A DNA stretch of 24,000 nucleotides, from the NCBI GenBank assembly GCA_003484265.1, contig DNDO01000049.1, positions 1 to 24,000 of the forward strand. Direction: 5' to 3'. The translations under genes and the position numbers were made by a program. Origin of the DNA: Anaerolineae bacterium (lineage in GTDB: Bacteria > Chloroflexota > Anaerolineae > Anaerolineales > Villigracilaceae). The notes under the pieces are model-generated. The model was not told the origin of the DNA, did no database searches, and saw nothing but the letters and a program-made list of their open reading frames with translations. Positions within the stretch are counted from its first letter, which is position 1. The number at the start of each line of letters is the position of its first letter. Below are positions 1,715-20,231 of this stretch, one piece after another.

Positions 1715-1717
1715 TAA

Positions 1718-3067
1718 CTATTCTTTGACACTTTCTTTTGAAAATTTATACGCTTGCAATGTTCTTTCTTTATCACGCTCGATGATCGGCTTTTCAGGGT
1801 AACCTTTTGCTTTGATTCCTTTTTCCCACGGCGCGTGAATGACCTTTGCATCCACATCGCGCAGTTCGGGAATCCAATTGCGGATGTAATCCCCGTTCGG
1901 GTCGAACTTTTTACTTTGCAGGGTTGGGTTGAAAATTCTAAAATAGGGCGCGGCATCGGTGCCTGTGCCAGCCGTCCATTGCCAGCCGCCATTATTTGCG
2001 GCGATGTCGCCATCGAGCAGGTTTTCCAGGAACCATGCCTCGCCCCAACGCCAGTCGATCAGCAGGTCTTTGACCAAATAAGACGCAACAATCATGCGCG
2101 CACGGTTGTGCATCCAGCCGGAACCTTTAAGTTGACGCATTCCTGCGTCGACAATCGGCACGCCGGTCCTGCCATCTTTCCATGCCTGGAATTCAGTCCG
2201 GTCATTACGCCAGGCGATATTTGCCAGCGATGATTTGAATGAAGTCTTTGCAATGTGCGGGAAGTGATACAGGATCTGGATATAGAACTCGCGCCAGATC
2301 AATTCATTCAACCAGACTTCAGCCCCCGCCCCCTTTTTTTGACTGATAGCCTGCCGCGCTTCACTGACAGCCTGTCTCAGCCCGAGCATTCCAAACCGCA
2401 GATACGGTGAAAGTGAGGATGTGCCATCCAGATCCATGCGGTTGCGGTCTTCGCCATAGGCATGAATTTTTCTGAATAGGAATTCTTCCAGCCGAACGAG
2501 CGCTTCCTTTTCACCCGCAGGAAAAAGGGGGTCCGCTTGGAATGGCGGCAGATGCCCGGACGTGAGCTTAAACGGTGTATTGATTTTTTCAGGTGCAGGG
2601 TAAAGTTCCAACTTTGATGGAAGTTTTGTCTTCCATATTTTTGAGTATGGTGTGTACACGGTATATGGTTTCCCATCCGCTTTGAGAACTTTATTTGGGT
2701 GGTGTACGGTTTGCCCGCTGACGAGGCTCAGGGGGAGATGATTTTTGATTTCCAGGTCCCGTTTACGGGCGTAAGGGGTGAAATCTTCCTCGGCAAATAT
2801 CTGTTTGGCATTAGTCTCTTGTATTAATTGACGTAATACATTTAGCGGTTTTCCCGTACGAATTACGAGATATGATTGATGTTTACGTAAATTTTTGTCA
2901 AGCGCGTCTAAACCTGCGTAAAGAAAGTCCTTCCGACGCGGAGACTGGGAGGAAAAGGCTGGATCGAGGATAAAGACGGGCAGGACGGATCCAACTTTGA
3001 GCGCGGAATGAAGCGCAGCGTTATCTGTCAGCCGCAAGTCACGTCGGATCCACCAGATCGCAGTCAT
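1718..3067 (-). CDS. phrB: Deoxyribodipyrimidine (CPD) photolyase / cryptochrome-photolyase family
   Basis: 449 aa. N-terminal WWIRRDLRLTDNAAL. C-terminal FAD-binding block DGDIAANNGGWQWTAGTGTDAAPYFRIFNPTLQSKKFDP. Its ATG overlaps the stop of the upstream small membrane gene (ATGA, 3064-3067). Confidence 0.93.
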   Translation of the reverse strand: MTAIWWIRRDLRLTDNAALHSALKVGSVLPVFILDPAFSSQSPRRKDFLYAGLDALDKNLRKHQSYLVIRTGKPLNVLRQLIQETNAKQIFAEEDFTPYARKRDLEIKNHLPLSLVSGQTVHHPNKVLKADGKPYTVYTPYSKIWKTKLPSKLELYPAPEKINTPFKLTSGHLPPFQADPLFPAGEKEALVRLEEFLFRKIHAYGEDRNRMDLDGTSSLSPYLRFGMLGLRQAVSEARQAISQKKGAGAEVWLNELIWREFYIQILYHFPHIAKTSFKSSLANIAWRNDRTEFQAWKDGRTGVPIVDAGMRQLKGSGWMHNRARMIVASYLVKDLLIDWRWGEAWFLENLLDGDIAANNGGWQWTAGTGTDAAPYFRIFNPTLQSKKFDPNGDYIRNWIPELRDVDAKVIHAPWEKGIKAKGYPEKPIIERDKERTLQAYKFSKESVKE

Positions 3068-3411
3068 GCCGGTATCACCAGAATGATACCGAACACTACC
3101 TCCACAATGAGGCTAATGATGTTCGACGAGACCGCCGATTTATCTACCACCATGGAAACCCCGCGCACCAGGGCGATGGCGAGATAGGTGATGCCAAGCA
3201 TCAGATACGCAGCAGGTGCATCGAGCGCCAACGGGACTGCTCCCAAAGCGATGAACACGCCTCCGAGAATTGAACGGATTTCTGTGATACCGCGTCCGCC
3301 AACGGGTTGCAGACCGGTAAAGGCTGTGATGGCTGTCGGCTTGATCAGAGAATACAAGCCCGTGAGTATGGTTGCAATGGCAGCGATTATGTGCATAATT
3401 TGAATGATCAT
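3064..3411 (-). CDS. Small integral membrane protein (DUF4345-like, about 4 TM)
   Basis: 115 aa and almost entirely hydrophobic helices. AGGAAAA SD upstream of the ATG. Translationally coupled to the photolyase. The family assignment is from memory of the pattern only. Confidence 0.6.
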   Translation of the reverse strand: MIIQIMHIIAAIATILTGLYSLIKPTAITAFTGLQPVGGRGITEIRSILGGVFIALGAVPLALDAPAAYLMLGITYLAIALVRGVSMVVDKSAVSSNIISLIVEVVFGIILVIPA

Positions 3412-3444
3412 AGGTTTTCCTAATTCTGAGTTCCTTATTGAATA

Positions 3445-4311
3445 TCAGAGTCGCGGGATTAATACAGGCGTTCTCTTTTTATATAACTCATAGTTTTCCT
3501 GTCCGCCCCATTTATTGTCTGCTTTTTTCTCAAGCTGAGGAACCCCACTAACGCGGGTAAGAAGCAATGCGACGAAGACAGGGGAAATCAGGGCAATCCA
3601 TTGCCAACCCTGCAGAACAGGCAGGGCGATTATTGACACGCCGACCCAGAGGACGATCTCACCAAAATAATTGGGATGGCGGGATCGCGACCATAATCCT
3701 GTTTGAATGAACCTGCCTTTATTGGCTGGATTTGCGTTAAATTTACTTTTCTGAGAGTCGGCAATAACCTCGAACGTAAAACCGATAGCCCAAACCAGAA
3801 AACCAACGACGGCAAACAGGTCTAATTCTTTTCTGGCGGTCGTTGTGATGGCAACCAGCGCCGCCGCCATTGTGAACGTTACCCACAAGCCCTGGATGGT
3901 CCATACATTTAGGAAGCGGATAAATGATGGTTTGAGTTCATCGAATCGATCATCCTTGCCCGCTTTTTTTATCCTGCCAAACAGGAATGTTCCGAGTCGG
4001 ATTGCCCAGATAATGACAAGACCTGATAAAAGGATTGATCTGGGGTCTACACCTGTGCTGAAAAAGAGGGCGAGAATGATTCCAGAAATATAAGTGATGC
4101 TTCCCGTCAGGTCAAAAAATTTTTCGGTTTGCCGCAAATATGCGGGGATAAATGCCAGCCACTGGATCATAAATACCATCCCAACCAACAAGGCGAATAA
4201 TGGAATGCCAGCTATAGAAGTTCCATTCTGGCTGCCTGCCCAGGCGACCAAAGCGCCGATCAATATCAAGATGGGAAATGTAAGTAGTGCATTACGATCT
4301 GATTTCTTCAT
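3445..4311 (-). CDS. DUF1295 / steroid-5-alpha-reductase-like polytopic membrane protein
   Basis: The track ORF extends to 4569, but that N-terminus overlaps the upstream gene. Start re-set to MKKSDRNALL (ATG = complement of 4309-4311), preceded by an AGGAA SD. 288 aa, multi-TM, with the C-terminal signature WSRSRHPNYFGEIVLWVG typical of DUF1295/ICMT-like reductase-methyltransferase folds. Confidence 0.8.
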   Translation of the reverse strand: MKKSDRNALLTFPILILIGALVAWAGSQNGTSIAGIPLFALLVGMVFMIQWLAFIPAYLRQTEKFFDLTGSITYISGIILALFFSTGVDPRSILLSGLVIIWAIRLGTFLFGRIKKAGKDDRFDELKPSFIRFLNVWTIQGLWVTFTMAAALVAITTTARKELDLFAVVGFLVWAIGFTFEVIADSQKSKFNANPANKGRFIQTGLWSRSRHPNYFGEIVLWVGVSIIALPVLQGWQWIALISPVFVALLLTRVSGVPQLEKKADNKWGGQENYELYKKRTPVLIPRL

Positions 4312-4334
4312 GGGAAATTTCCTTTTGAAGCGGG

Positions 4335-5009
4335 TTAAAACCCGCGTCTTTGACCCTGCCATGGGGCGGGGGAATCGTTTTTGAACTCTTCCACGCTGGG
4401 ACCACTCAGAGTGACAAGCCGCCAGGCCCCATAGATGTAACTGACGATGAGCAGGACGATGGTCGCAGGCCAGCCTGTCAATGCGTTGACCATCGCCAAC
4501 TGGCTTGTGTCCTGCCCTTGAAAGAGCGTCACCTGCCACCACAAACGAAGTGTGAAAAAGACAGTCCATACCAGAGTGACTTCAGTATAAGCAGGACGTA
4601 CCTGGGCATGCCAATACCATTCCAGGGGCCAACGGCGGGCGAAGTAGCTTGTCCATGCCACCATGGGTTTGCGGATAAGCAGGCTGACCAGTGCAAGCGC
4701 GATCGTGATTCCTCCGTTGACAATGCCCGGGAGAAAGTAGCCTTCAGAACGTCCGAGCAGAAGCGCGAGTGCAAATGCCAGCGCGACACTTCCCATGCCT
4801 GCAAGGGCATACATTAGAGATTGTTTGCGGCGCAAGCGCATGATGGCTATCACGATTGCTGTACCGAGCGCTCCGTACATTGCGGCTTGGAAACCAACTA
4901 GTCCATTTAATAACAAAAATAAAACCGGCGGCAGGATGGTATCCAGTACGCCAACTCCATTGGTGACGGAGCGGAGTTCCTCCATCAGTTCGCGTGTTTT
5001 GTCACGCAT
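4335..5009 (-). CDS. Polytopic membrane protein (DUF3159-like)
   Basis: 224 aa. The pattern LDTILPPVLFLLLN ... MRLRRKQS ... YFLPGIVNGG ... IRKPMVAW resembles DUF3159 as I recall it. The start overlaps the stop of the upstream gene by 8 nt. Confidence 0.62.
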   Translation of the reverse strand: MRDKTRELMEELRSVTNGVGVLDTILPPVLFLLLNGLVGFQAAMYGALGTAIVIAIMRLRRKQSLMYALAGMGSVALAFALALLLGRSEGYFLPGIVNGGITIALALVSLLIRKPMVAWTSYFARRWPLEWYWHAQVRPAYTEVTLVWTVFFTLRLWWQVTLFQGQDTSQLAMVNALTGWPATIVLLIVSYIYGAWRLVTLSGPSVEEFKNDSPAPWQGQRRGF

Positions 5010-5328
5010 GCTTTCCCAGCCAGAATTTGCGCCAGTCGTTTTCGCTGTTTTGGAGGGTAATGAAAGCGTAGAGACTGCCCGCGAGGAATCCGAGGATCAT
5101 CACGGCAGCTGTCCATACGATCGCCACAGGCAGGGATTTCTCGCGGAAGATGATCCATCCTGAGAAAAGCACGAAGCCCGTGTATAAGTCTACGAGTGAG
5201 ACGATGCCCCAGGGCATGGATGCCAACTGTTTTCCTTCGGCGAAAAAGTCACCCACGATGAAGCCATAAATCAGGGCGGCAGCCATTGCAAGCACACCCA
5301 GAGCGGATACGATTTTTGCATTGCGCAT
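5002..5328 (-). CDS. Small membrane protein (DUF1475-like, about 3-4 TM)
   Basis: Start re-set to MRNAKIVSALGVL (ATG = complement of 5326-5328), giving 108 aa. The motif MPWGIVSLVDLYTGFVLFSGWIIFRE is recalled as DUF1475-like. It begins 31 nt downstream of the heliorhodopsin stop. Confidence 0.58.
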   Translation of the reverse strand: MRNAKIVSALGVLAMAAALIYGFIVGDFFAEGKQLASMPWGIVSLVDLYTGFVLFSGWIIFREKSLPVAIVWTAAVMILGFLAGSLYAFITLQNSENDWRKFWLGKHA

Positions 5329-5359
5329 ATTGTTTTTCACTTTGTACGTCAGATTCTTC

Positions 5360-6139
5360 CTATACCGGTGCCAGCGTGCCAGCAAAGATCATCCAGGCTA
5401 ATACTGTTTTTGCAACCAAACTGAGAATTACGAAAGCCCGTTCTCCATATAAGTAGTTTTTCCATGGTCCGACCTTTTTATATTGCAGGTACATGTTGAC
5501 TGCGAAAGTATTGAAGAACACGAACAGGGTTGGGATGATGGCGTACACAAAGGCAGGCGGCTTGGCTTCCCCGCCGGATGCAATGGAGCCAAAGAAGTAG
5601 ATGAATATCACCAGCCAGGGGATAATTCCAGCGATCGAGCCGAAAGTGAATGGCGACCAATCCGGTTTTGCTCTCCCTTGATTAAGGCTCTCCATCAATA
5701 AGCCGAACAGGTTCATCATGGCATTCAATCCAAACATAAGGATGATGGCGCCCAAATCCCAGACGCCCGCCAGCATGCCTATTAGTACAATCATAAGAGA
5801 TGAACTAAGGGCATATTCGTAAAAACGAATGGGATTTTTTCCCTGCTGTAGGTTTTCCACATAGCTTGTGTAACCGATGGTGGAAAGATAGAAGTGGGCG
5901 ATAGCGGAAAGCAGCAGGAAGATGGCAACCGATGGACCGAGAGGCAGTTCGTAGAACAGGTCAGCCACTGGGGAAAGTGAGAAGGTGGATGTATTGAAAC
6001 TAAGGAAGTTCGTAAATACAGGGTAGGTAGTATCGTTGCTGACGACCCACATAAATACTCCCTGAATCAAATGTAAGAATCCCATGATCAGGTTGAATCG
6101 TCGAAGTTTTGAGAAAGTTTGATCGGTTTGGACAGGCAT
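5360..6139 (-). CDS. Heliorhodopsin (7-TM retinal protein, inverted-topology rhodopsin family)
   Basis: 259 aa and colinear with heliorhodopsin 48C12 as recalled. RFYEYALSSSLMIVLI matches RWVEYSLSSSVMIVLI. YGERAFVILSLVAKTVLAWMIFAGTLAPV matches RGERAYIVLSLVAKSALAWQIFSGTLIPA. FGLNAMMNLFG, GSIAGIIPW and FVFFNTFAVNMYLQYKK also match. Putative Schiff-base Lys K244 (codon 5408-5410), counterion Glu E108 (5816-5818), and conserved His23 and His82. AAGGAG SD 8 nt upstream of the ATG. Confidence 0.9.
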   Translation of the reverse strand: MPVQTDQTFSKLRRFNLIMGFLHLIQGVFMWVVSNDTTYPVFTNFLSFNTSTFSLSPVADLFYELPLGPSVAIFLLLSAIAHFYLSTIGYTSYVENLQQGKNPIRFYEYALSSSLMIVLIGMLAGVWDLGAIILMFGLNAMMNLFGLLMESLNQGRAKPDWSPFTFGSIAGIIPWLVIFIYFFGSIASGGEAKPPAFVYAIIPTLFVFFNTFAVNMYLQYKKVGPWKNYLYGERAFVILSLVAKTVLAWMIFAGTLAPV

Positions 6140-6191
6140 TAATATAGCTCCTTTTGCTTATTGGTTTATGTAAATAGAAAGTGTTTTTCGA

Positions 6192-7490
6192 TTAGGCGAA
6201 TTTTTGGGACTCGAGAGTCAACCAGTCGCTTATTTCATTTCCATCTTCATTCATCACTCCTTTAACAGAGACGGCGTACATTTCCAGGTAGATCGGTAAT
6301 ATGGCGGTGGATACGTTTTGGGTGATGAGTAAGTTGCTCAACCACTGCATGTCTGTGGAGAGAAAATTGATATCGCCGAGTTTGAGGGTTGCGATCAGGC
6401 TGTCGCCGAGGAATTGGTTGGCAGTGTCGAGAAAGTCGATGGATTGACCCTGCGATGCAATAATGTGGGATAAGGTGGTTTCGATCTGAGTTCTGTGTTG
6501 ATGAAATTCATCTGCGAGGAGAAGGGTACCGTTTTTGGCGGTTTCCTCTTTTACCATAGGGACAGAGTTTACGATCAGGTTTTCGATGGCGGGGACAGCA
6601 CTTCCGATGCTGTTGCCGAGAAAATGGGCAGGGATCCGTTTTTCAAGTCCGTTGATGTCATTGAAAACCCTGCCTCCAAATGCTGATTGAATCCCTTTTT
6701 TATTTAGTGTTCGCGCCATCTCGCGCAAGTGGACGGCGTTCACCAGGGTCTGCGCGGAGAGCACAACCAGTTTGGGCTTGGTGGTTTTGACCGTTTCATC
6801 GATGCGGGCTGTCGGTACGTTTGCGCCAAGATAGACCACATTCCAGCCGCGTCTTCGTAATAAGAGATTGGTCAGTAACAATGGGAAGGCGTGCCATTCA
6901 TTAGGCGGGCAGGCAAGCACGATGGTCTCGTTGCGGGTTGGAGAAGGGGTTGCGCTTATGAGTGCTTCGAGCCTGCGTGTGGCGAGGCCCGATGCGAAGT
7001 GTTCCTGTTGGACGGACGCCGAGCCTTTGTGCCAGTATTCACCGACTTCGTATAATCCGCGCATGATGATCTCTGTGCAGGCTATCTCAATGGAATGAGC
7101 GGCAAATGCCTGATTCAATATTTGTTCCGCGGCGACCGTATTATAGTTGAAGCAAGCAGTCAGCCACTCTCTGCGCAAGGCTTCGATGTTCAAGTTGTCA
7201 ACAGGGATATTGTTTTTTGGTTGCGAATCAGCCAGAGGGTCTGTACCCGAAGCGATGGTTTCGTTCCACAAGTCTACTGCGCGGGAGATCGAAAGTCCTT
7301 CCTCCTGTTTTGCGAGCAGCCATTTGATCGTCGCGATATCGCGATCGGAATACAGGCGATGCCCGCCTGATGTGCGCTGTGGAACGGGGAGACCGTAGCG
7401 GCGTTCCCATGCACGTAGTGTGTCGGCGGCAATGCCCGTTTGGTTGAGCACGACTTTGATATTGTAGGTGGGTGTCTGGCTGATTATCAT
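6192..7490 (-). CDS. litR: MerR-family, B12-binding light-responsive transcription regulator (LitR/CarH type) with an extra C-terminal domain
   Basis: 432 aa. N-terminal MerR HTH (YNIKVVLNQTGIAADTLRAWERRYGLP...GGHRLYSDRDI). W153-x9-E163-H164 (EYWHKGSASVQQEHF) is the CarH-type AdoB12 cap motif. Rossmann B12-binding domain with E198-W-H200-A-F-P203 in place of ExHxxG. About 125 residues follow the B12 domain, which canonical ~300-aa CarH lacks. Confidence 0.87.
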   Translation of the reverse strand: MIISQTPTYNIKVVLNQTGIAADTLRAWERRYGLPVPQRTSGGHRLYSDRDIATIKWLLAKQEEGLSISRAVDLWNETIASGTDPLADSQPKNNIPVDNLNIEALRREWLTACFNYNTVAAEQILNQAFAAHSIEIACTEIIMRGLYEVGEYWHKGSASVQQEHFASGLATRRLEALISATPSPTRNETIVLACPPNEWHAFPLLLTNLLLRRRGWNVVYLGANVPTARIDETVKTTKPKLVVLSAQTLVNAVHLREMARTLNKKGIQSAFGGRVFNDINGLEKRIPAHFLGNSIGSAVPAIENLIVNSVPMVKEETAKNGTLLLADEFHQHRTQIETTLSHIIASQGQSIDFLDTANQFLGDSLIATLKLGDINFLSTDMQWLSNLLITQNVSTAILPIYLEMYAVSVKGVMNEDGNEISDWLTLESQKFA

Positions 7491-7512
7491 TTATCTTTCC
7501 AATTATTTGAGT

Positions 7513-9045
7513 TTAGACGCGTGCGGCAGCAACCGCATTTGCCATATTTTGAACCGATATTGTATCTTTTTCTTTGAGGATTCTCTCGGTCGTCAGGCGG
7601 GCAGATAACAGCACGATGGGAAGCCCCGTGCCTGGATGGGTGGACGCACCAGCGAAGTAGAGATTTTTATATTTCTTATGACGGTTCTGCGGACGCAAAT
7701 AGCCAACCTGCAAGAAGTTGTGACTGAGACCAAACGCAGAGCCCTTCTCAAGGTTAAAACGTTCTTTCCAAACTTTGGGTTGATACACGATCTCGAACTT
7801 GATATGTTCTCTGAGATCATCCACGCCTAATTCCGTAGCGAGGCGTTTGAACACGATTTCGCGAGCACGTTTTACCAGCGCATCCCAGTCCTGTTCACTG
7901 CGTGCATCAAGGTGACCGACAGGCATCAACACGTAGAGAGTATCCTGACCTTTTGGAGCGGCGGCTTTATCAGTGCGTGTTGGCGCATGGACATAGAAAG
8001 ACGGCACATCAGGTAATGTGTGATCCTCGAATATTCGGTCAAACGAAGCCTTGTAATCGCCGCCGAGGAATACGTTGTGATGCGCGATCTGTTCATACTC
8101 CTTGTCCACGCCCCAGTAGAACATTATCGTGGAGCAGGTGTAGAGTTTGTTTTCGAGTTTTTTTGATTCATTTACATCGGGCAATAATTCTTTATAAATA
8201 TAGGGCAGGTCTGCATTGCCGATGAAGATGTCGGCTGTTAATTCTCGTCCATCATTTAACTGAACACCTTCAACTCTTGAACCTGCAACTTTCATACGTT
8301 TTACAGGTGAGTTGTAGATGAACTTGACACCCAGTTTTTCAGCAACCTTGACCAACGCCTGAATGCCCGCGTACATCCCGCCCATGGGGTACCAAACACC
8401 TTCGGCTAATTCCGTGTATTGCAAAAGGGAGTATGTGGCAGGCGCATCGTAAGGGCTGAGACCAAGATACATATTCTGGAAAGTGAATGCTGCTTTGAGC
8501 CTTTCATCTTTGAAGTATTTACCGACATTGGCAAAATGTTTCTGTAATGCTTTGAGGTTGAATATGAGGGGCAGATTACGCAGTGATAGGTACTCGAAGA
8601 TGTTGTAAAAATTGCGCCCCACAAACTTCTCAACGGATACCTTGTAATGTTTGCCGCCTTCCGCGATGTAATTCAGGAAGCCCGTGAAGGCGGTCTTCTC
8701 AACCTTCTCCAGTTGTTCCTGCATTTTTCCGATGTCCGACGTCAACTCCAATTTCAAGCCGTCGATAAAATGGACTTTATATGTGGGGTCGATGCGGCGC
8801 AGGTCGAGGTGGTCATTCATTTTCTCGCCGAGGGAGGCAAAGGTTTCCTCCCAAATTTCGGGCATCAAGAACAGGGTTGGACCAATATCGAAGCGGTGAC
8901 CGTCGCGTACGATCTGGTTGGCGCGCCCGCCAGGGGTCGCCTCCTTTTCGAGCACTGTCACGTCATATCCGTTTTTGGCGAGGCGGGCGGCAGTGGCAAT
9001 CCCGCCAATGCCTGCCCCGATCACGATTGCAGTTCGTTTTTTCAT
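7513..9045 (-). CDS. crtI: Phytoene desaturase
   Basis: 510 aa. N-terminal FAD fold IVIGAGIGGIATAARLAKNGYDVTVLEKEATPGGRA. C-terminal NLYFAGASTHPGTGLPIVLLSA, typical of CrtI. AAGGAAG SD. First gene after the divergent promoter. Confidence 0.92.
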   Translation of the reverse strand: MKKRTAIVIGAGIGGIATAARLAKNGYDVTVLEKEATPGGRANQIVRDGHRFDIGPTLFLMPEIWEETFASLGEKMNDHLDLRRIDPTYKVHFIDGLKLELTSDIGKMQEQLEKVEKTAFTGFLNYIAEGGKHYKVSVEKFVGRNFYNIFEYLSLRNLPLIFNLKALQKHFANVGKYFKDERLKAAFTFQNMYLGLSPYDAPATYSLLQYTELAEGVWYPMGGMYAGIQALVKVAEKLGVKFIYNSPVKRMKVAGSRVEGVQLNDGRELTADIFIGNADLPYIYKELLPDVNESKKLENKLYTCSTIMFYWGVDKEYEQIAHHNVFLGGDYKASFDRIFEDHTLPDVPSFYVHAPTRTDKAAAPKGQDTLYVLMPVGHLDARSEQDWDALVKRAREIVFKRLATELGVDDLREHIKFEIVYQPKVWKERFNLEKGSAFGLSHNFLQVGYLRPQNRHKKYKNLYFAGASTHPGTGLPIVLLSARLTTERILKEKDTISVQNMANAVAAARV

Positions 9046-9103
9046 GTTTCTTCCTTAGCTCCCCTCTCTCGTTTTAGGAAAGGGGTTGGGTGTCATTTCA
9101 AGC

Positions 9104-9131
9104 ATTATACACAATGCACAGAATTTGTCAA
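9104..9131 (-). promoter_or_regulatory. Sigma-70-type promoter reading toward crtI: -35 TTGACA (complement of 9126-9131), 16-bp spacer, -10 TATAAT (complement of 9104-9109)
   Basis: Read directly from the reverse complement. Both hexamers match the consensus exactly. The implied leader to the crtI ATG (9045) is about 50 nt. Confidence 0.7.
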
Positions 9132-9145
9132 GATTATCTTGACAA
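9125..9145. promoter_or_regulatory. Perfect inverted repeat TTGTCAAGA-TTA-TCTTGACAA; candidate operator covering both divergent -35 boxes
   Basis: 9-bp arms with a 3-bp spacer and no mismatches. Each arm contains a TTGACA, one per strand. Confidence 0.75.
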
Positions 9146-9167
9146 AAGAACACAAAACATGTACAAT
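9139..9167 (+). promoter_or_regulatory. Sigma-70-type promoter reading toward crtB: -35 TTGACA (9139-9144), 17-bp spacer, -10 TACAAT (9162-9167)
   Basis: Read directly from the sequence. GGAGG SD at 9185-9189 and crtB ATG at 9194. Confidence 0.7.
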
Positions 9168-9193
9168 GAATCAATTCTACCTTTGGAGGTCAA

Positions 9194-10138
9194 ATGCAGG
9201 TACAAGCGAAATGGGAAAACCAACTACTCGATTTGGCGGGGAAAATCCCGCACTCATCAACCCGCCCCTTCTTTTCATATTGGGCTGGCGATGCCGCACT
9301 TCGCAAAGCCTACAATCTCGCCGAAAAGATCACGGCGAGACAGAGCAAATCCTTCCATTTTGCATCCTCGCTCCTCCCAGAAGAGAAACGTTTAGCCGTT
9401 CGCGCCTTGTATGCCTTTTGCCGCACAGTGGATGACATTGTGGATACGTCCACGGACGATACGCGAGAGTCCCAACTCGATTACTGGCGTGGGATGGTGG
9501 AGCACGCCTCTTTTCTCGACGGGGATCTGGTTGCCGCTGCATGGGCTGATACCTTATCCCGTTACCAAATTCCCCGGCACTATGCCCTTCAATTGATAGA
9601 CGGCGTCAACCGCGACTTGACCCAGTCCCGGTATCAAACCTTCGAAGAGCTTGCCACATATTGCTACGGTGTGGCATCTACGGTTGGATTGATGAGCATG
9701 TACATAATTGGTTTCAACAGCAATAAAGCAGTTCCGTACGCGATCAAACTCGGTGTCGCCCTCCAAATGACCAACATCCTGCGCGATGTGGGGGAGGACT
9801 TCCAAAATGGACGGCTCTATTTGCCGCGTGAAGAACTCGCCTACTACGGTATTCGTGAACAGGATATCGTTGAGGGGCATGTCACCGACAACTGGCGACA
9901 GTTCATGAAGTTCCAGATCGAACGTACACGTCAGCTTTATGAAGATTCATGGGAAGGCGTAAAGATGCTTGAACGCGAAGGACAATTTGCCATCGGCGCC
10001 GCATCCGTTTTTTATCAGGGTATCTTGGATGAGATCGAAAAGAACGACTATGATGTATTTACGCAAAGAGCGAATTTATCCGCATTGAGCAAACTAAGAA
10101 AAGTTCCAGCCTTATGGTTGAAGATCAAAGCTTTGTAA
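9194..10138 (+). CDS. crtB: Phytoene synthase
   Basis: 314 aa. SKSFHFASSLLP, the Asp-rich motif YAFCRTVDDIVD, and the second motif LQMTNILRDVGEDFQNGRLYLPREEL. Confidence 0.93.
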   Translation: MQVQAKWENQLLDLAGKIPHSSTRPFFSYWAGDAALRKAYNLAEKITARQSKSFHFASSLLPEEKRLAVRALYAFCRTVDDIVDTSTDDTRESQLDYWRGMVEHASFLDGDLVAAAWADTLSRYQIPRHYALQLIDGVNRDLTQSRYQTFEELATYCYGVASTVGLMSMYIIGFNSNKAVPYAIKLGVALQMTNILRDVGEDFQNGRLYLPREELAYYGIREQDIVEGHVTDNWRQFMKFQIERTRQLYEDSWEGVKMLEREGQFAIGAASVFYQGILDEIEKNDYDVFTQRANLSALSKLRKVPALWLKIKAL

Positions 10139-10163
10139 ATCGAAGCATAATAGGAGAAATAAA

Positions 10164-10913
10164 TTGAAAGACACGTTACGACAAATCACCAATCTTGTTA
10201 CCGTCATCATTGCGCTGACGATTAACATCCTGGCCTCTGCTTTGCCCCTCAACGGACAGAACACAGGCGAAATTTCAGACCGCTTCGAAGTGTTTTTCGT
10301 CCCCGCTGGTTATGTATTTTTAATCTGGTTCTTCATCTTCGCCGGCTGGATCGCATTTTCCATTTTCCAGTCTCTGCCGGCACAAAAGGAAAAGCCCCGT
10401 CTACGCAGACTTGGTTATTTATTTGCCCTGAGCAATATTGCCAACGCAGGCTGGTTATTCATGTGGCACTACAATTATTTTGGATTGAGCGTGATCTTCA
10501 TGCTGTCCTTGCTGGGACTGCTCATCGCCTGCTACCTGCGTCTCGATGTGAACCGCTCTGGCGCCAAAGGTGCCGAATGGTGGTCGGTTGATTTGCCCTT
10601 CAGCGTCTATCTCGGCTGGATTACCGTAGCTACTGTCGCAAACATCACAGCCTGGTTGTCCTTTGTCAACTGGAACGGCCTGGGTATCTCAGAGCCGATC
10701 TGGGCGGTTATCATGCTTGCGGTCGCGTCCATCCTCGGTTTTGGCATGGCATTTACGAGGCGGGACGCAGGCTATCTGCTCGTCCTTGTCTGGGCATTTA
10801 TCGGCATCGCAGTTAAGCAGACACCTGCTCTAGTAGTCACCGGTGCATGGATCGCGGCAGGTGCCATGCTCGTGCTTGCCTTGTACAACTTGATCCGCCG
10901 CCAATCCGCATAG
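10164..10913 (+). CDS. Trp-rich polytopic membrane protein, TspO/MBR-related (long form)
   Basis: 249 aa with a TTG start and an AGGAG SD at 10152-10156. Motifs PAGYVFLIWFFIFAGW, NAGWLFMWHYNYF and VYLGWITVATVANITAWL resemble the tryptophan-rich sensory protein family. It begins 25 nt after crtB. Confidence 0.5.
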   Translation: MKDTLRQITNLVTVIIALTINILASALPLNGQNTGEISDRFEVFFVPAGYVFLIWFFIFAGWIAFSIFQSLPAQKEKPRLRRLGYLFALSNIANAGWLFMWHYNYFGLSVIFMLSLLGLLIACYLRLDVNRSGAKGAEWWSVDLPFSVYLGWITVATVANITAWLSFVNWNGLGISEPIWAVIMLAVASILGFGMAFTRRDAGYLLVLVWAFIGIAVKQTPALVVTGAWIAAGAMLVLALYNLIRRQSA

Positions 10914-11184
10914 GTAATTTAAGCTGAACGCAGCTTATCAACTTGGTTCGCCATGGTTGGGGTGGCCTTCTTTGACATTATTCATGGATAAGCACTTGGT
11001 GGTGCATCAGGAAAGTTTGAAATATAGTGTTGGGATGAATAATTTATGAATATCGAAGATTCTCTCACGATGGTTCCAGCATTTGCGCCGAGCAGGGAAC
11101 TGATAGGATTTACCCCAATGGAGATTACTTTATTATAGTTTATATCATAATTATCTAAATGAAAACTCAAAAAAGGTCATATAA

Positions 11185-12477
11185 ATGACAATGAAAAAGC
11201 CAACTAGTTTGGTAATCGTCGGGTCGGGTCCCGTTGGAATGGTTGCCGCGTTGATGTTTAAGCAACATTTCAAGAAAGTCATCCTGCTTGAACGTCAATC
11301 AAAGGAGAGTTTCCTTCGAACCCATGGCTTTACATTTCCGATCGTGTTTTCCCCCGCTTCGATAAAAATTCTAAAAGAGATCGGTGTCTGGGAAGGGATC
11401 AGTTCACAGCGGTCTGAATTCTTCGGTGTGGTCATACATAAACGAATTTTTGGCAGGGAATTCAGGTTTACATCTTCGAGAGAGGGGGTGTATTCCCACT
11501 GGAGAAATCATGCCATCACAAAGCTTTATGAGCGGATGGTTGAATTAGGAATCCCGATTCATTTCAATGCCCGTGTTGAAAGTATAGACTTCCAGGGTAA
11601 TGTTTGCAGGGAATCAAATTTGGGGGAGATCCCATTCGATCTCCTGTTGGGTGCAGATGGCATCAACAGTCAAACTCGCGGACTTATGGCAAAGGCACAT
11701 CCAGAATTTGAAGAAAACCAGTTCAGTTTGACATTTTTAGACAACTGGTATGCCTATCGTCTCCCATCAGAGGGTGTCATGCGTGAAAAATTTTCTGGGG
11801 GGAATCGCTTCCTGGCATCAAATGTCTTTGTCGACAATCTGGCCGATCACCCCTCTGAAAAATTCCGCATAGTGACTACAGGGATGCGGCAACCAGAGGA
11901 AGAGATCAGCATCCTAATCAAATATGGCGCAGACGTGAGTTTTCCCCGCCTCAAGTATTTGAACGAGAGTTATTTTGGTCGATTTGTGGAATCAAAACAG
12001 GAATTGGATGCAGCCTGGGAAGCCGGATATGCCGGTAAGTTTGAGCAAGCTTATGCGCCAACTTTCCACTTAAACAACGTGCTGCTTATAGGTGATGCAG
12101 CTCATGGATTTGAGAGTACTGGAGATCTAATCAATCTCGGTATCGCCTCCATTGGATCGTTTTATGAAATCTTCACCCGTCAATCGGATTTGGCTGGCGC
12201 TTTGAAAGAGTATGACAACACTGTTGGCGAAGACTTACGTTTCTATGCAGGATTTTCCTATCGCAGAAGCAAAGAAAAGGTTGCATTTGAAATAGGATCG
12301 ATTGAATTTGCTGGATGGTTGGGGATTACAAAGCGCCACCCTACTTTATTTGGTATCTATGAAGATGATTTTGAGATTTCCAGTTATATGAAAGCTTATA
12401 AGAAGGACATTCTAAAGAGTAGGTTGGTAGTATTTGGTTTTATACTCGCCATCATCCTACTGATCTTAGTATGCTAA
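11185..12477 (+). CDS. FAD-dependent aromatic-ring monooxygenase (UbiH/KMO-like) with a C-terminal TM anchor
   Basis: 430 aa. GxGxxG in LVIVGSGPVGMVAA, the GADG motif LLLGADGINS, and GDAAH in LLIGDAAHGF. Hydrophobic C-terminal tail VVFGFILAIILLILV. Confidence 0.8.
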   Translation: MTMKKPTSLVIVGSGPVGMVAALMFKQHFKKVILLERQSKESFLRTHGFTFPIVFSPASIKILKEIGVWEGISSQRSEFFGVVIHKRIFGREFRFTSSREGVYSHWRNHAITKLYERMVELGIPIHFNARVESIDFQGNVCRESNLGEIPFDLLLGADGINSQTRGLMAKAHPEFEENQFSLTFLDNWYAYRLPSEGVMREKFSGGNRFLASNVFVDNLADHPSEKFRIVTTGMRQPEEEISILIKYGADVSFPRLKYLNESYFGRFVESKQELDAAWEAGYAGKFEQAYAPTFHLNNVLLIGDAAHGFESTGDLINLGIASIGSFYEIFTRQSDLAGALKEYDNTVGEDLRFYAGFSYRRSKEKVAFEIGSIEFAGWLGITKRHPTLFGIYEDDFEISSYMKAYKKDILKSRLVVFGFILAIILLILVC

Positions 12478-12516
12478 TTGACATCCGTCTTGTACTCGAT
12501 TAAGGAATATAATCTC

Positions 12517-13230
12517 ATGGATTTAAGCCTTTATTTACTCATCGCTCTATTGTTGACTTCCTGCACAACCGCCTCTTCGTTGCCAACCGAAACATCGGTT
12601 CCCATGCTCAATCAGGAGACTACTTCCATGCCGAAGATTCGATATCTTGCACTGGGTGATTCGTATACCATAGGTGAAAAAGTCCCTGAACGGGACCGTT
12701 GGTCCAACCAACTCGAGAAATTACTTGAAGGGAATGGTATTTACTCGGATGTAACCATCATCGCCCGTACAGGCTGGACGGTCAACGAACTTTGGGAAGG
12801 AATCCAAGCCACTCCTCCGGAGGGATCGTATGACATGGTCACGTTATTAATAGGTGTCAATGACCAGTACCGCGGCTATCCCGTGGACGGTTATCGCGAA
12901 GATTTCCGTTTTATACTCGGGAAAGCCATCGAATATGCGGGTGGTGACCCGGAACGAGTGGTAGTGTTGTCCATTCCTGATTGGGGATTTACTCCTTTTG
13001 CAGGAAGTCAGGACACCGAACCCATCAGCAAAAAAATCGACGAGTTCAATGCCGTCAACCTTGAAGAATCTGAATCGGCGGGAGTATATTATGTGAATGT
13101 AACCCTCATCTCCCGCATGGCAATGGACGATTTTGATTTGCTTGCTTCGGATCGATTGCATCCATCAGGTAAAATGTATGCCATGTGGGCGGAGAAGACT
13201 TTGCCGATCGCTTTGGAAATATTGAAATAA
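12517..13230 (+). CDS. SGNH/GDSL-family hydrolase, probable lipoprotein
   Basis: Start re-set to MDLSLYLLIALLLTSC (lipobox-like LTSC), with an AAGGA SD at 12502-12506. Block I is LALGDSYTIGE, block III is LLIGVNDQ, and block V is DRLHPS. Confidence 0.8.
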   Translation: MDLSLYLLIALLLTSCTTASSLPTETSVPMLNQETTSMPKIRYLALGDSYTIGEKVPERDRWSNQLEKLLEGNGIYSDVTIIARTGWTVNELWEGIQATPPEGSYDMVTLLIGVNDQYRGYPVDGYREDFRFILGKAIEYAGGDPERVVVLSIPDWGFTPFAGSQDTEPISKKIDEFNAVNLEESESAGVYYVNVTLISRMAMDDFDLLASDRLHPSGKMYAMWAEKTLPIALEILK

Positions 13231-13284
13231 TGATAGTAGGGCTTGGTCACCCCGCCCGTAGTACAAAAATATGAGGAGAATGAC

Positions 13285-13923
13285 ATGTCTAAAATAGATT
13301 ACGACAAAACGCAGGAATATTTAGAAACTCTCATTCCCCCGCGCGAAGAAGAGATTCAAAGGATGGAGGAGTATGCAAAAGAAAAAGGTTTCCCGATCAT
13401 CGGTCCTGCATGCGGATATTATTGTTACCAACTCGCGAGAATGATCGGGGCGAAATCCATCTTTGAACTGGGATCAGGATATGGCTATTCAACGGCATGG
13501 TTTGCAAAGGCAGTGAAAGAAAATGGGGGAGGGGTAGTGCACCACACCGTCTGGGACGATGATCTGTCGAAGCGTGCGAAAGGACATTTGTCCGCGTTGG
13601 GGAGCGACGATGTCGTCAAGTTCCATATAGCGGAGGCGGTTGAGACTCTTCGCAAGACGAGCGGTCCGTTTGACATCATCTTCAACGATATTGATAAGGA
13701 TGCATATCCAACTTCCTTGCCTCATATCAAAGAGAAATTACGCTCAGGCGGATTGCTCATCATTGACAACATGATATGGCATGGACAGATCCTCGACCCG
13801 AACGACCGCGAAAAGACCACGGAAGCTATCCGCGAATTCACGAAGATGATAACGACCGATCCTGATTGGATCGTTTCACTAACCCCCATGCGAGACGGGA
13901 TGATCGTTGCATTTAAAAAATAA
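13285..13923 (+). CDS. Class I SAM-dependent O-methyltransferase (family 3, caffeoyl-CoA OMT-like)
   Basis: Start re-set to MSKIDYDK after a GAGGAG SD (13273-13278). SAM motif IFELGSGYGYST and the metal/acidic motif IIFNDIDKDAYP. Confidence 0.85.
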   Translation: MSKIDYDKTQEYLETLIPPREEEIQRMEEYAKEKGFPIIGPACGYYCYQLARMIGAKSIFELGSGYGYSTAWFAKAVKENGGGVVHHTVWDDDLSKRAKGHLSALGSDDVVKFHIAEAVETLRKTSGPFDIIFNDIDKDAYPTSLPHIKEKLRSGGLLIIDNMIWHGQILDPNDREKTTEAIREFTKMITTDPDWIVSLTPMRDGMIVAFKK

Positions 13924-13931
13924 CAGAGACT

Positions 13932-15092
13932 ATGAAATACAGTTTTTATGCCACCCCAAACCGCCGCAACCTGAATATTCTGAACAAATGGACTTACTAT
14001 CCAAAAGATGTGCTTCCCATGTGGGTGGCAGATATGGATTTTCCAGCTCCAATACCTATTCTAAATGAACTTCATCGGGTGGTGGATCAAGGCGTACTTG
14101 GTTATGAGATCCCGTCAAAATCCTTGAGCGAGACGGTCGCCGCCCGCATGGACCATCTATACCAATGGAAAGTGAGACCTGAGTCTGTGGTCACTGTGAC
14201 GGGCATCGTAAGCGGGTTCAACGTGGCGGCGCGAGTGTTCTGTTCACTGAAGAAGGGGGTGCTCATTCAGACGCCGGTGTTTAACGAGTTCCATGAGGTT
14301 AAAAACAATATCGGTATTCCGCAAATCGATGTTCCACTCGTTAAAAGCGTGGACGGGAACATTTTGCACTACGAGATCGATTGGGATGTTTTTAGAAAAC
14401 AGGTGAAGAAGGCGGGCATGTTCCTATTATGCAATCCGCATAACCCGCTCGGTATCATCTTTTCTCATAAAGACCTGTTGCGTATGGCTGAATTTTGTAT
14501 TGAGAACGGCGTCGTGATCGTTTCCGATGAGATTCATTCAGAACTGTTGCTTGGCGGCAATCAATTCACCCCAATGGCGAAACTCTCGCCAGAGATCGCA
14601 AAACATACAATTACACTCGTATCGCCTTCGAAGACGTTTAATGTACCTGGTTTGTTCTGTGGCTTTGCAATCATCCAAAATAAGGAGTTGCGTGAGCGGT
14701 ATAAAAAAGAAGTGGAACATTTGCGTCTGCATGTGAACAGCATGGGATTGCATGCTGCTCAGGTTGCGTTCTCCGGTCAATGTGACGGCTGGTTGAGAGA
14801 ATTACGCCGCTACCTGACCGCGAACCGGGATTTCCTCGTGAAATACATTACAGAGAATATGCCCAATGTGAGAACAACCATCTCAGAAGCCACTTATTTG
14901 GGCTGGCTCGATTTTACGCGAACAGGAATTAAAGGCTCCCCCTACAAATATCTCATAAAAAATGCCAAGGTGGCATTAAGCGAGGGGAAAATATTTGGCA
15001 GTGATGGGAAAGGTCATACCCGCATCAACTTCGGCACGTCGCGCAAAATTCTCAAACAGGGATTGGACCGCATTCGCAGAGCGCTGCCATAA
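13932..15092 (+). CDS. PLP-dependent C-S lyase / aminotransferase class I-II (PatB/MalY type)
   Basis: 386 aa. N-terminal LPMWVADMDFPAP and the PLP-lysine motif SPSKTFNVPGL. Confidence 0.85.
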   Translation: MKYSFYATPNRRNLNILNKWTYYPKDVLPMWVADMDFPAPIPILNELHRVVDQGVLGYEIPSKSLSETVAARMDHLYQWKVRPESVVTVTGIVSGFNVAARVFCSLKKGVLIQTPVFNEFHEVKNNIGIPQIDVPLVKSVDGNILHYEIDWDVFRKQVKKAGMFLLCNPHNPLGIIFSHKDLLRMAEFCIENGVVIVSDEIHSELLLGGNQFTPMAKLSPEIAKHTITLVSPSKTFNVPGLFCGFAIIQNKELRERYKKEVEHLRLHVNSMGLHAAQVAFSGQCDGWLRELRRYLTANRDFLVKYITENMPNVRTTISEATYLGWLDFTRTGIKGSPYKYLIKNAKVALSEGKIFGSDGKGHTRINFGTSRKILKQGLDRIRRALP

Positions 15093-15136
15093 AAAAAGAC
15101 GAATGGGGAACCTTGTTACAGGAACACCCATCCGTC
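15091..15136 (-). terminator. Rho-independent terminator oriented for the - strand
   Basis: On the - strand RNA, GACGGAUGGG (15136-15127) pairs with CCCAUUCGUC (15107-15098), one G-U pair included, and is followed by U7 (15097-15091). No U-tract follows the stem in the + orientation. Confidence 0.65.
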
Positions 15137-15363
15137 GAATAAGTCTTACTATTAAGATGGCTGAAAGGAGCGGGGGAACTGCGCCTTCCTATCGTTAGGA
15201 GAACGTCTGGTAACAAAGCCGAGCTTCGTCCAGCTTAAGGCAACCCGGTCCTTCCGTAGGTAAAAATGTCAGGTGGTGTTTCTATGGGTACCTCCTTTCT
15301 CTTATTTACATCATACACCCAATTAACTGCGATACATTAAATTCAGTTTACAGACTCCTTAAA

Positions 15364-15813: not shown

Positions 15814-15968
15814 AATATCTCCTCGTTGATTTGACATGACAAGTACAATACACCCTAACACTCGTAATAGTAATAGGATACTGGTCATTCTCCGTTGTTA
15901 TTTTGAGCGTAAACTCATATTGTGACTGAAATTGTTGTACGCTACAATAAGTGCATCAAGGAGAAACC

Positions 15969-17435: not shown

Positions 17436-17442
17436 AGATTAT

Positions 17443-18240: not shown

Positions 18241-18249
18241 ATACAGACG

Positions 18250-20230: not shown

Positions 20231-20231
20231 G

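Follow-up and report, generated by a model that had tools for sequence, protein, structure and literature searches.

A predicted CarH-type promoter–operator between the divergent crtI and crtB operons of an Anaerolineae bacterium

Positions 9104–9167 of the 24,000-nucleotide stretch of Anaerolineae DNA analyzed here (the window) probably constitute a compact divergent promoter–operator of ~63 bp. Two diverging repeat arrays within it would be bound by the CarH/LitR-type repressor encoded at 6192–7490, giving an AdoCbl light switch of both flanking operons, a reading to which we assign a probability of roughly 0.7. A preliminary description of this DNA had marked the same span, which matches the predicted operator, and had proposed one light switch acting on both promoters. 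As the linked protein is of the CarH/LitR type and carries AdoCbl motifs, a single B12-dependent switch of both promoters is also the best reading of our data. The same description placed a single symmetric repressor on a palindrome. We do not retain that element of the model, since 29 of 32 related regions have no palindrome and the conserved positions outside the promoter boxes fit the direct-repeat rule of CarH. Two diverging repeat arrays, to which two or more oligomers probably bind, describe the site better.

Results

The genes and sequence elements of the site are collected in Table 1. The minus-strand array had been described as containing ten genes; we count nine open reading frames of at least 100 aa within the window, and across the rest of the leftward array (446–5385) the intergenic gaps are short or the genes overlap. 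The heliorhodopsin gene occupies the same position in the related loci L087 and L090. On the rightward side, homologues of the TspO-like protein (67–78% identity) are found in the same position in nine related loci, and the gene downstream of crtB in L087 gives a weak match to PF03073 (TspO_MBR). The window and the relatives show no second regulator gene in synteny with the site.

Table 1. Genes, promoters and repeat elements at and around the crtI/crtB intergenic region (coordinates of the window).
Feature	Position	Strand	Remarks
Rest of leftward array	446–5385	−	DUF1475-like gene, DUF3159, DUF1295, DUF4345, DNA photolyase (1718–3067), cytochrome P450 (446–1714)
Heliorhodopsin	5360–6139	−	Third gene of leftward operon; Pfam PF18761, E = 1.3e-98
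Regulator, 432 aa	6192–7490	−	Predicted repressor of both promoters; in crtI operon
crtI (phytoene desaturase)	7513–9045	−	First gene of leftward operon; Pfam Amino_oxidase, E = 1.9e-28
crtI promoter	TTGACA 9131–9126, TATAAT 9109–9104	−	16-bp spacer
crtI −10 TATAAT (9109–9104) with 5′ TG	9104–9111	−	TGTATA (9111–9106); weak third repeat, +20
crtI-spacer pseudo-repeat ATTCTGTGCAT	9114–9124	−	TGTGCA against TnGACA consensus; 11 bp downstream of crtI −35
Perfect 11-1-11 palindrome TTTGTCAAGAT-T-ATCTTGACAAA	9124–9146		Two head-to-head CarH-type 11-bp repeats, base pair 9135 common to both
Repeat DR1′ AATCTTGACAA	9125–9135	−	Exact nAnnTnnACAn; holds crtI −35 TTGACA (9131–9126)
Repeat DR1 TATCTTGACAA	9135–9145	+	Exact nAnnTnnACAn; holds crtB −35 TTGACA (9139–9144)
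crtB promoter	TTGACA 9139–9144, TACAAT 9162–9167	+	17-bp spacer
crtB-spacer pseudo-repeat	9145–9155	+	ACA at 9152–9154, 10 bp past the DR1 ACA; A at the T position
Repeat DR3 AACATGTACAA	9156–9166	+	Exact nAnnTnnACAn; overlaps crtB −10 TACAAT (9162–9167)
crtB ribosome-binding site GGAGG	9183–9187
crtB (phytoene synthase)	9194–10138	+	First gene of rightward operon; Pfam SQS_PSY, E = 3.5e-78
TspO-like membrane protein	10164–10913	+	Second gene of rightward operon; without Pfam match

Two near-consensus promoters had been reported at the site, one directed toward the crtI operon and the other toward crtB and the TspO-like gene. Their boxes and spacers agree with the sequence (Table 1), and both directions are conserved in relatives. 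A consensus scan of positions 5000–24000 ranks the pair first and second, with 12/12 and 11/12 matches, while every other sigma-70-like site scores ≤10/12; the total number of promoter-like matches in this interval is no higher than in shuffles. The scan found no TG in the extended −10 register at either promoter. A candidate extended −10 element formed by the TG before TACAAT was rejected because that TG is one base out of register.

The comparison set comprised 32 non-redundant related intergenic regions, from Anaerolineales/Chloroflexota where named, and assignment of a −35 box required a −10 box 16–18 bp downstream. Loci L002 and L003, whose sequence stops before or inside the intergenic region, were left out of the full comparison. 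Exact TTGACA hexamers occur on the two strands of all 32 regions, and a TAnnnT −10 box lies 16–17 bp downstream of each hexamer. This two-strand conservation is the strongest evidence against a chance origin, and both promoters can be taken as real and as maintained among the relatives. Promoter function, and not an operator, accounts for part of the signal, since sigma-70 selection alone would conserve TTGACA and TAnnnT. The crtB −10 box reads TACAAT in 18/32 regions, with TG directly 5′ (out of the extended −10 register) in 22/32; the crtI −10 box reads TATAAT in 24/32 and is preceded by TG in 18/32.

The 9-3-9 inverted repeat TTGTCAAGA-TTA-TCTTGACAA noted earlier at 9125–9145 is present at those coordinates, but its length was understated, the full palindrome being 11-1-11. 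The hexamer centres of the two −35 boxes lie 13 bp apart. Taken alone, the palindrome is only mildly unusual per window, because 14 of 300 first-order Markov randomisations of these 24 kb contain at least one mismatch-free palindrome whose arms reach 11 nt or more around a loop of up to 5 nt. The improbable part is its placement within the 148-bp crtI/crtB intergenic region with both −35 boxes on it. Neither the palindrome arm nor the repeat arrays have further copies above chance within the window, so we identify no further operators in these 24 kb. An RNA hairpin or terminator was considered and rejected: the palindrome lies upstream of both predicted start sites, and the window has no Rfam match.

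In two published accounts (PMC9304148, PMC8156234), CarH binds tandem 11-bp repeats, nAnnTnnACAn or nnnnTnnACAn, that overlap the −35 or −10 element. According to the same accounts, the number of repeats per operator is four for BmCarH and three for TtCarH and falls in myxobacteria to one or two good repeats plus pseudo-repeats, and some CarH operators are expected to control divergent promoters (PMC9304148, PMC8156234). The pattern AnnTnnACA has 30 matches in the 24 kb, three of which fall at the present site, at 9126–9134 (−), 9136–9144 (+) and 9157–9165 (+), and three-repeat arrangements were found within the window only here. Repeats run downstream from each −35 box, one embedding the box itself and more following ~9–11 and 20–21 bp on, where they reach the −10 box. 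Counted from the −35 repeat, the crtB-side repeats stand at 0, +10 (degenerate) and +21 and those of the crtI side at 0, +11 (TGTGCA) and +20 (TGTATA). The non-consensus C of the crtB −10 box TACAAT supplies the ACA of DR3. At the position of the crtB-spacer pseudo-repeat, the close relatives L004 and L084 have a perfect TTGACA, and the degenerate TGTGCA of the crtI spacer is common to the window, L004, L028 and L084.

The geometry departs from that of a canonical tandem array, which weighs to some extent against the preferred reading. The best two repeats face in opposite directions, those in the middle are degenerate (ACACA without T; TGTGCA), and the crtB-side spacing is 9–10 bp followed by 11 bp, as against a strict 11 + 11.

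Conservation among the 32 relatives falls on repeat positions 2, 5 and 8–10. Position 2, which lies 3 bp before the hexamer, is A in 32/32 regions on the crtB side and in 27/32 on the crtI side, and position 4 is C in 27/32 on each side; the flanking C and AA(T) are conserved at positions outside the canonical −35 hexamer. Further downstream, the crtI spacer has TnGACA (TnnACA) at +11 in 26/32 regions, and on the crtB side 15/32 regions have an in-phase ACA at +9/+10 and 18/32 have one at +20/+21. Only in the window, L004/L093 and L084 are the −35 hexamers separated by 7 bp; the separation is 16–30 bp in the other 29/32, where there is no palindrome. The palindrome takes the form 12-1-12 in L084 and 9-5-9 in L004/L093. 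Its inner positions coincide with two conserved positions of the repeat, 2 (A) and 4 (C), and therefore only one extra symmetric pair is left to explain. The comparison indicates that the conserved unit is the CarH-type repeat, nAnnTnnACAn, rather than the palindrome, which follows from known rules and does not represent a novel type of element.

Of the 47 copies of the composite motif TTGACA-N5-TnnACA across 536 kb of related loci, 38 lie just upstream of the crtI/regulator operon on the same strand, 8 on the opposite strand of that region and 1 elsewhere. Where a regulator gene lacks an upstream crtI, TTGACA-N5-TnGACA followed by a −10 box stands directly upstream of it in L050, L062 and L080, and L067 has the same layout with CAGACA as the second repeat; in L080, three tandem repeats precede the gene. 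Judged from these loci, the motif appears to track the regulator gene and not crtI.

Pfam assigns to the regulator a MerR_1 HTH (residues 9–73, E = 6.5e-13), a B12-binding_2 domain (PF02607, 106–177) and a B12-binding domain (PF02310, 189–277). The best PDB sequence match is Thermus thermophilus CarH (TtCarH, E = 2.4e-27), with residues 6–72 aligning to its DNA-binding domain. The Wx9EH motif, which in this class caps the adenosyl group (W153, E163, H164), and E198-W-H200 (ExH, with H200 as lower-axial His) align with the TtCarH motifs, and these residues are invariant in 64 homologues. The link made earlier between the 432-aa protein and B12 light sensing holds up: it is a CarH/LitR-type MerR-B12 regulator with AdoCbl photoreceptor motifs. 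For the AF2 model (pLDDT 90.4), Foldseek matched TtCarH cobalamin-binding-domain structures at a target-normalised TM of 0.82–0.87.

At 432 aa, the protein is not of the two-module CarH form of ~280–330 aa that ends at the Rossmann fold. The preliminary description missed a confidently modelled, photoglobin-like helical domain of ~130 aa that follows the Rossmann fold at the C terminus. The best 120 of 4,866 database homologues are all 424–450 aa in length, and the extension aligns across relatives. Foldseek searches against the photocobilins 8J2W and 8J2Y gave E values of ~5e-16 to 4e-15, a target-normalised TM of 0.82–0.84 and an rmsd of ~3.5 Å over ~330–340 columns. The extension is accordingly predicted to be a photocobilin-type five-helix globin-like domain packed on the CarH-like B12 domain. 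This resemblance is seen via the predicted structure only, as neither phmmer with the last 148 aa nor an HMM built from 41 homologues gave a significant PDB match for the domain. The SasPcob Trp that contacts both the corrin and biliverdin (SEQRES 290, author numbering 296) aligns with W383, a residue that does not vary among 64 homologues; the alignment is poor around the key SasPcob residue Asp270, for whose equivalent F360, A357 and D363 are candidates. The extra ~130 aa could alter the oligomeric state, the DNA-binding mode or even the sign of regulation.

Discussion

The analysis establishes the sequence features and how far they are conserved, the domains and motifs of the regulator, and the association of the motif with the regulator gene; from these, we infer how binding, repression, light response and stoichiometry at 9104–9167 would be organized. 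Each −35 hexamer forms the core of an 11-bp nAnnTnnACAn repeat, with further repeats or pseudo-repeats about one turn apart extending through the spacer into the −10 box. The two arrays face away from each other, and in this lineage they have come so close that the −35 repeats share base pair 9135, which accounts for the perfect palindrome. Repressor oligomers loaded with AdoCbl would, in the dark, sit on both arrays and block RNA polymerase at the −35 and −10 boxes of both promoters. Light would photolyse AdoCbl and dissociate the oligomers, switching on crtB and the TspO-like gene in one direction and crtI, the regulator, heliorhodopsin, photolyase and P450 in the other. The regulator would also control its own synthesis, because its gene sits in the leftward operon.

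T. thermophilus CarH (LitR; PDB 5C8D, 5C8E, 5C8F) resembles the regulator in its MerR winged helix, four-helix bundle, Rossmann B12 domain, Wx9EH motif and lower-axial His. Its operator likewise has 11-bp nAnnTnnACAn repeats, one of which holds the −35 box, and controls carotenoid genes. However, TtCarH has ~290–305 aa and no C-terminal globin-like domain, the window regulator being ~130 residues longer, and its operator consists of three tandem direct repeats for one tetramer, whereas the window has two arrays that diverge from a shared base pair and contain degenerate middle repeats. The operators of Bacillus megaterium CarH and of myxobacterial CarH proteins (Cystobacter, Sorangium, Haliangium), as described in excerpts of PMC9304148, are plastic and, like the window site, have good repeats and pseudo-repeats over the −35 and/or −10 box. 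Pseudo-repeats are tolerated in these operators, but the window geometry is unmatched among those in the excerpts, none of which shows a pair of −35 repeats merged head to head to give a perfect palindrome. The proteins themselves are without a photoglobin domain and come from phyla different from that of the window. The same excerpts report that a Cystobacter CarH dimer needs two tandem repeats per dimer (PMC9304148), a requirement resembled by the 11-bp pairs seen here (crtI side 0/+11; crtB side −11/0 and +9/+20 in relatives).

The palindrome itself could instead be the operator, with one symmetric dimer or tetramer on both arms of a MerR-style pseudo-palindrome blocking both −35 boxes, as first proposed for this site. 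We consider this unlikely, even though the palindrome is perfect over 23 bp, sets the two hexamer centres 13 bp apart and is kept in variant form in L084 and L004/L093. The 29 palindrome-free regions accompany orthologous regulators (45–72% identical) with their elements 16–30 bp apart, conservation reaches downstream of each −35 box instead of lying symmetrically about the dyad, and the inner palindrome bases are accounted for by the conserved repeat positions. MerR DNA-binding domains typically read palindromes or pseudo-palindromes, and the CarH domain keeps most of the same DNA contacts (PMC8156234); CarH-type proteins, by contrast, have been reported on tandem direct repeats (PMC8156234), and a B12 module of the CarH/photocobilin type oligomerises head to tail, binding direct repeats in the case of CarH (PMC8156234, PMC10979010). 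In this clade, a single oligomer bridging both arms might still occur, as inverted half-sites 13 bp apart centre to centre might, by our own estimate of the half-site spacing in MerR, suit a MerR-like symmetric contact.

Classical MerR operators (MerR, CueR, BmrR type) share the MerR-family DNA-binding domain and a palindrome in the promoter region; their dyad lies inside an over-long spacer of 19–20 bp, and transcription is activated by DNA distortion. We rejected an activator site of this kind, as the spacers here are 16 and 17 bp and the dyad lies between the two divergent −35 boxes, not inside a spacer.

Two strong back-to-back sigma-70 promoters, unregulated or otherwise regulated, would suffice to explain the near-consensus boxes, the TTGACA and TAnnnT that sigma-70 selects and the AT-richness of the regions, with the palindrome and its flanks reflecting promoter and UP-element selection. 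Such selection does not reach several conserved positions that have no sigma-70 consensus, namely the A 3 bp before the hexamer (32/32, 27/32) and the TnGACA midway along the crtI spacer (26/32), and the non-consensus C of the crtB −10 box (TACAAT, 18/32) is what a TnnACA repeat needs. The composite motif is, moreover, almost absent elsewhere in the 536 kb and follows the regulator gene even without crtI. We regard promoters alone as a very unlikely explanation.

It is more improbable still that the MerR-B12 protein acts elsewhere and that the palindrome, or the TTGACAAA elements, are read by an unlinked protein, such as a TetR/PadR-type repressor or a CRP/FNR-type activator of the kind of Thermus LdrP: we infer the link between the MerR-B12 protein and the site, and Thermus has in LdrP a second regulator acting downstream of LitR, yet the window and its relatives hold no other syntenic regulator gene, and the motif fits the published CarH repeat consensus and precedes the gene of the regulator itself in all architectures examined.

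Two diverging CarH-type arrays remain our preferred reading, and the predicted C-terminal domain bears on what kind of CarH relative would occupy them. Predicted regulator residues ~100–432 superpose (TM 0.82–0.84) on the photocobilins SasPcob (8J2W/8J2X) and AbPcob (8J2Y), which are described in PMC10979010. The characterised photocobilins stand alone or are fused to a diguanylate cyclase and regulate enzymes, whereas the window protein has a MerR HTH. The MerR-B12-photoglobin architecture has already been catalogued bioinformatically (PMC8717448). Our search returned no paper characterising it as a transcription factor; among the photocobilin papers searched, no title or abstract concerned a DNA-binding photocobilin, and the two examined for DNA binding or transcription describe none. 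We tentatively suggest, as a possible if doubtful extension, that the regulator is a DNA-binding photocobilin. Carrying AdoCbl and a bilin, it would bind as head-to-tail dimers on 11-bp repeat pairs, and not as a CarH-like tetramer, and would make transcription of the carotenoid, heliorhodopsin and photolyase genes in Anaerolineae responsive to green as well as red/far-red light.

Conclusions

The site is best read as a compact version of a known light switch whose repressor has an unusual extra domain, predicted to bind a pigment. B12 photoreceptors of the CarH type are textbook examples of a light switch and have found wide use as an optogenetic part. The regulator belongs to a large conserved family of CarH relatives, from Anaerolineales/Chloroflexota where the source is named, with an extension whose predicted fold resembles that of the photocobilin bilin-binding domain; if the regulator binds bilin, B12-based gene control would be extended to red light. 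The comparative operator map presents the 11-bp TnnACA repeats as two diverging arrays whose separation steps by about one repeat (7, 19, 30 bp), and it provides testable DNA substrates together with a natural minimal version of 63 bp. The separations in the relatives suggest that an extra 12 or 23 bp between the arms is tolerated. Should the DNA-binding photocobilin reading be true, such a protein would have in the fused-palindrome operator a naturally occurring minimal target.

The function of heliorhodopsin is still debated. Here its gene sits in an apparently light-induced photoprotection operon together with carotenoid synthesis and photolyase, and if the regulator is indeed a DNA-binding photocobilin, this would provide a first physiological setting in which light gates the expression of heliorhodopsin itself.

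Results

A mismatch-free 9-3-9 inverted repeat had been described between crtI and crtB, and its coordinates proved correct; the full symmetry is longer still, a perfect palindrome that contains both -35 boxes and lies in the 148-bp gap separating the two divergent genes. The two back-to-back, near-consensus promoters also have the hexamers and spacers assigned to them. In a consensus scan of 5000-24000, they ranked first (12/12 and 11/12; third best site, 10/12), and the total of promoter-like matches was not above that of shuffled sequences. Because a perfect palindrome whose arms reach 11 nt or more arose in 14 of 300 Markov randomizations of the window, it is the location of this one that is improbable, not its existence. 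Rfam and repeat scans detected nothing else at the site.

Features of the window
Feature	Position	Strand	Remark
TTGTCAAGA-TTA-TCTTGACAA	9125-9145		inverted repeat, read from the window sequence
Full palindrome	9124-9146		11-1-11
crtB-side promoter	9139-9144, 9162-9167	+	TTGACA, 17-bp spacer, TACAAT
crtI-side promoter	9131-9126, 9109-9104	-	TTGACA, 16-bp spacer, TATAAT
Repeat TATCTTGACAA	9135-9145	+	exact match
Degenerate repeat	9145-9155	+	ACA at 9152-9154; perfect TTGACA here in L004 and L084
Repeat AACATGTACAA	9156-9166	+	exact match
Repeat AATCTTGACAA	9135-9125	-	exact match
Repeat ATTCTGTGCAT	9124-9114	-	degenerate
Repeat TGTATA	9111-9106	-	weak, overlaps -10
crtB	9194-10138	+
Membrane protein	10164-10913	+	downstream of crtB; same-position gene in L087 is a weak TspO_MBR match
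crtI	7513-9045	-
MerR/B12 regulator	6192-7490	-	432 aa
Photoglobin-like domain (predicted)	6192-6600	-	residues about 300-432
Heliorhodopsin	5360-6139	-
DUF1475-like, DUF3159, DUF1295, DUF4345	3064-5385	-
DUF1475-like, longest ORF	5002-5385	-	overlaps upstream neighbour by about 25 nt
DUF1295, longest ORF	3445-4569	-	overlaps upstream neighbour by about 230 nt
Photolyase	1718-3067	-
Cytochrome P450	446-1714	-
Zinc-ribbon gene	17577-18203
GC-rich perfect inverted repeat	18200-18239	-	19 bp, 2-nt loop; at end of zinc-ribbon gene
Hybrid histidine kinase	20232-22775	-	847 aa; PAS, GAF, HisKA, HATPase, two receiver domains

Regulator scans found 3 genome loci and 80 metagenome loci (L-numbers), with closer relatives added through exact-protein look-ups; where a source is named it belongs to Anaerolineales or Chloroflexota, and regulator identities span 45% to 83%. 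The divergent arrangement of crtB and crtI-regulator is retained in about 30 loci, and 32 non-redundant intergenic regions were used for promoter comparison. All 32 have an exact TTGACA at both -35 positions, with a TAnnnT -10 located 16 bp downstream in 28-30 and 17 bp downstream otherwise. The gap between hexamers is 7 bp in the window, L004/L093 (regulator 83% identical) and L084 (78%), 16 or 18 bp in two regions, 19 bp in ten, and 26-30 bp in 17. Only the 7-bp class carries the palindrome (9-5-9 in L004, 12-1-12 in L084), and relatives whose regulators are 72%, 70% and 67% identical have gaps of 30, 19 and 19 bp, respectively; for these reasons, the palindrome reads as a lineage-specific compaction and not as a conserved unit.

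Gap lengths group around 7, 19 and 29-30 bp, in steps of about one repeat. Most relatives strongly conserve cTTTGCAAAACC between the two hexamers, 11 bp 5' of the crtB -35 (e.g., L001, 2410-2440). This element, which the window, L004 and L084 lack, may be a fourth pseudo-repeat, an UP element or a site for another factor. The crtI 5' leader, about 50 nt in the window, is 60-200 nt longer in several relatives (L003, L009, L010, L028, L084), and these longer leaders contain GC-rich inverted repeats, such as GGTGGTCTCGAC...TCGAGACCACC in L003 (100-200), which may fold in the leader RNA or represent a small repeat element.

Across the 32 regions, it is direct CarH-type repeats that are conserved instead, which argues against the palindrome as the recognition unit. 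CarH sites are 11-bp repeats (nAnnTnnACAn), three or four of which overlap the -35 and/or -10 in tandem; pseudo-repeats are tolerated, and divergent promoters are expected for some operators (PMC8156234; PMC9304148). Beyond the canonical -35 hexamer, the 32 regions conserve an A three bases before it (repeat position 2; all 32 on the crtB side, 27 on the crtI side), a C immediately 5' (27/32 on each side) and AA(T) 3' of it. On the crtI side (consensus C-TTGACA-AAtanTnGACA..gtg-TAtAAT), TnnACA recurs mid-spacer at exactly +11, counted in bp from the -35 repeat, in 26/32. The crtB side (consensus tcTTTGCAAAACC-TTGACA-AAt...a.AAAa.cTGTAcAAT) has an in-phase ACA at +9/+10 in 15/32 and at +20/+21 in 18/32, its -10 is TACAAT in 18/32, and TG immediately precedes this -10 in 22/32. 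The +20/+21 ACA, the TACAAT and the preceding TG together mark the non-consensus C of the -10 as the base needed by a TnnACA repeat. An extended -10 reading of the TG was ruled out, as it is out of register.

Within the 24 kb, AnnTnnACA has 30 matches, three of them at the promoter site, the only place with a three-repeat pattern. Base pair 9135 is common to both -35 repeats. Around it, the palindrome's inner bases (G-A-T/T/A-T-C) correspond, strand by strand, to the C, T and A of repeat positions 4, 3 and 2. Because two of these three positions are conserved in the repeat, the perfect symmetry is almost entirely the product of two abutting consensus repeats.

Across 536 kb of related loci, TTGACA-N5-TnnACA occurs 47 times: 38 immediately 5' of the crtI/regulator operon on the same strand, eight on the opposite strand of that intergenic region and one elsewhere. 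Regulator genes lacking an upstream crtI still have TTGACA-N5-TnGACA and then a -10 directly upstream (L050, L062, L080); L067 has the same motif with CAGACA as second repeat, and L080 has three tandem repeats. The motif thus goes with the regulator gene.

Among solved proteins, the regulator is closest to T. thermophilus CarH (E = 2.4e-27), with which its Wx9EH motif (W153, E163, H164) and lower-axial His (E198-x-H200) align; these residues are invariant among 64 homologues. Compared with CarH, it has about 130 additional C-terminal residues, for which sequence searches returned no PDB match. All of the best 120 of 4,866 homologue matches are 424-450 aa long. An AlphaFold2 model built with 64 homologues as input (pLDDT 90.4) superposes on CarH and on photocobilins 8J2W and 8J2Y (target TM 0.82-0.84, about 330-340 columns), and a photoglobin-like domain like that of photocobilins is predicted for the extension; photocobilins are photoreceptors that use B12 and biliverdin and carry a globin-like domain at the C terminus (PMC10979010). 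The invariant W383 aligns with the SasPcob tryptophan contacting both chromophores; the equivalent of the key SasPcob Asp could not be placed by alignment. The MerR-B12-photoglobin architecture has already been listed bioinformatically (PMC8717448). In the photocobilin papers searched, mostly by title and abstract, we found no photocobilin or MerR-B12-photoglobin protein characterized as a transcription factor.

The leftward genes overlap or are separated by short gaps, and nine ORFs of 100 aa or more were counted, one fewer than the ten described. Relatives have shorter called orthologues of the DUF1295 and DUF1475-like genes (the latter 108 aa in L087), so the real starts are probably internal to the longest ORFs. 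Heliorhodopsin is an optional operon member, placed after the regulator in L038, L083, L087 and L090 as in the window; the closest same-palindrome relatives, L004/L093 and L084, have photolyase directly after the regulator. Farther away, the inverted repeat at the zinc-ribbon gene is the window's top-scoring intrinsic-terminator-like site, and the hybrid histidine kinase, about 11 kb from the photoprotection cluster, may be a further sensory input.

Discussion

By its sequence, the element appears to be a compact variant of the known CarH-type operator. The preliminary description's single light switch for both operons holds as to the kind of switch and its targets, given the CarH motifs and the motif-regulator link, and fails as to the recognition unit. 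In the dark, AdoCbl-loaded repressor on both arrays (about 9104-9166) would keep RNA polymerase off both promoters; in light, Co-C bond cleavage would disrupt the head-to-tail interface and turn both operons on. The circuit would be autoregulated, since the regulator is encoded in the leftward operon.

As for stoichiometry, dimers would fit the 11-bp repeat pairs: photocobilins form head-to-tail dimers in the dark (SasPcob is monomeric after illumination; PMC10979010), and Cystobacter CarH dimers require two tandem repeats each (PMC9304148). Such pairs lie at 0/+11 on the crtI side and, in relatives, at -11/0 and +9/+20 on the crtB side, with a 9-bp step between. Two tetramers on the arrays are equally possible. 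With two arrays predicted, the single repressor unit originally proposed at the palindrome is probably wrong. One oligomer could conceivably bridge both inverted arms in the compact clade.

The greater novelty lies in the regulator, predicted from its model to be a DNA-binding photocobilin, and in the heliorhodopsin-containing operon that it would place under light control.
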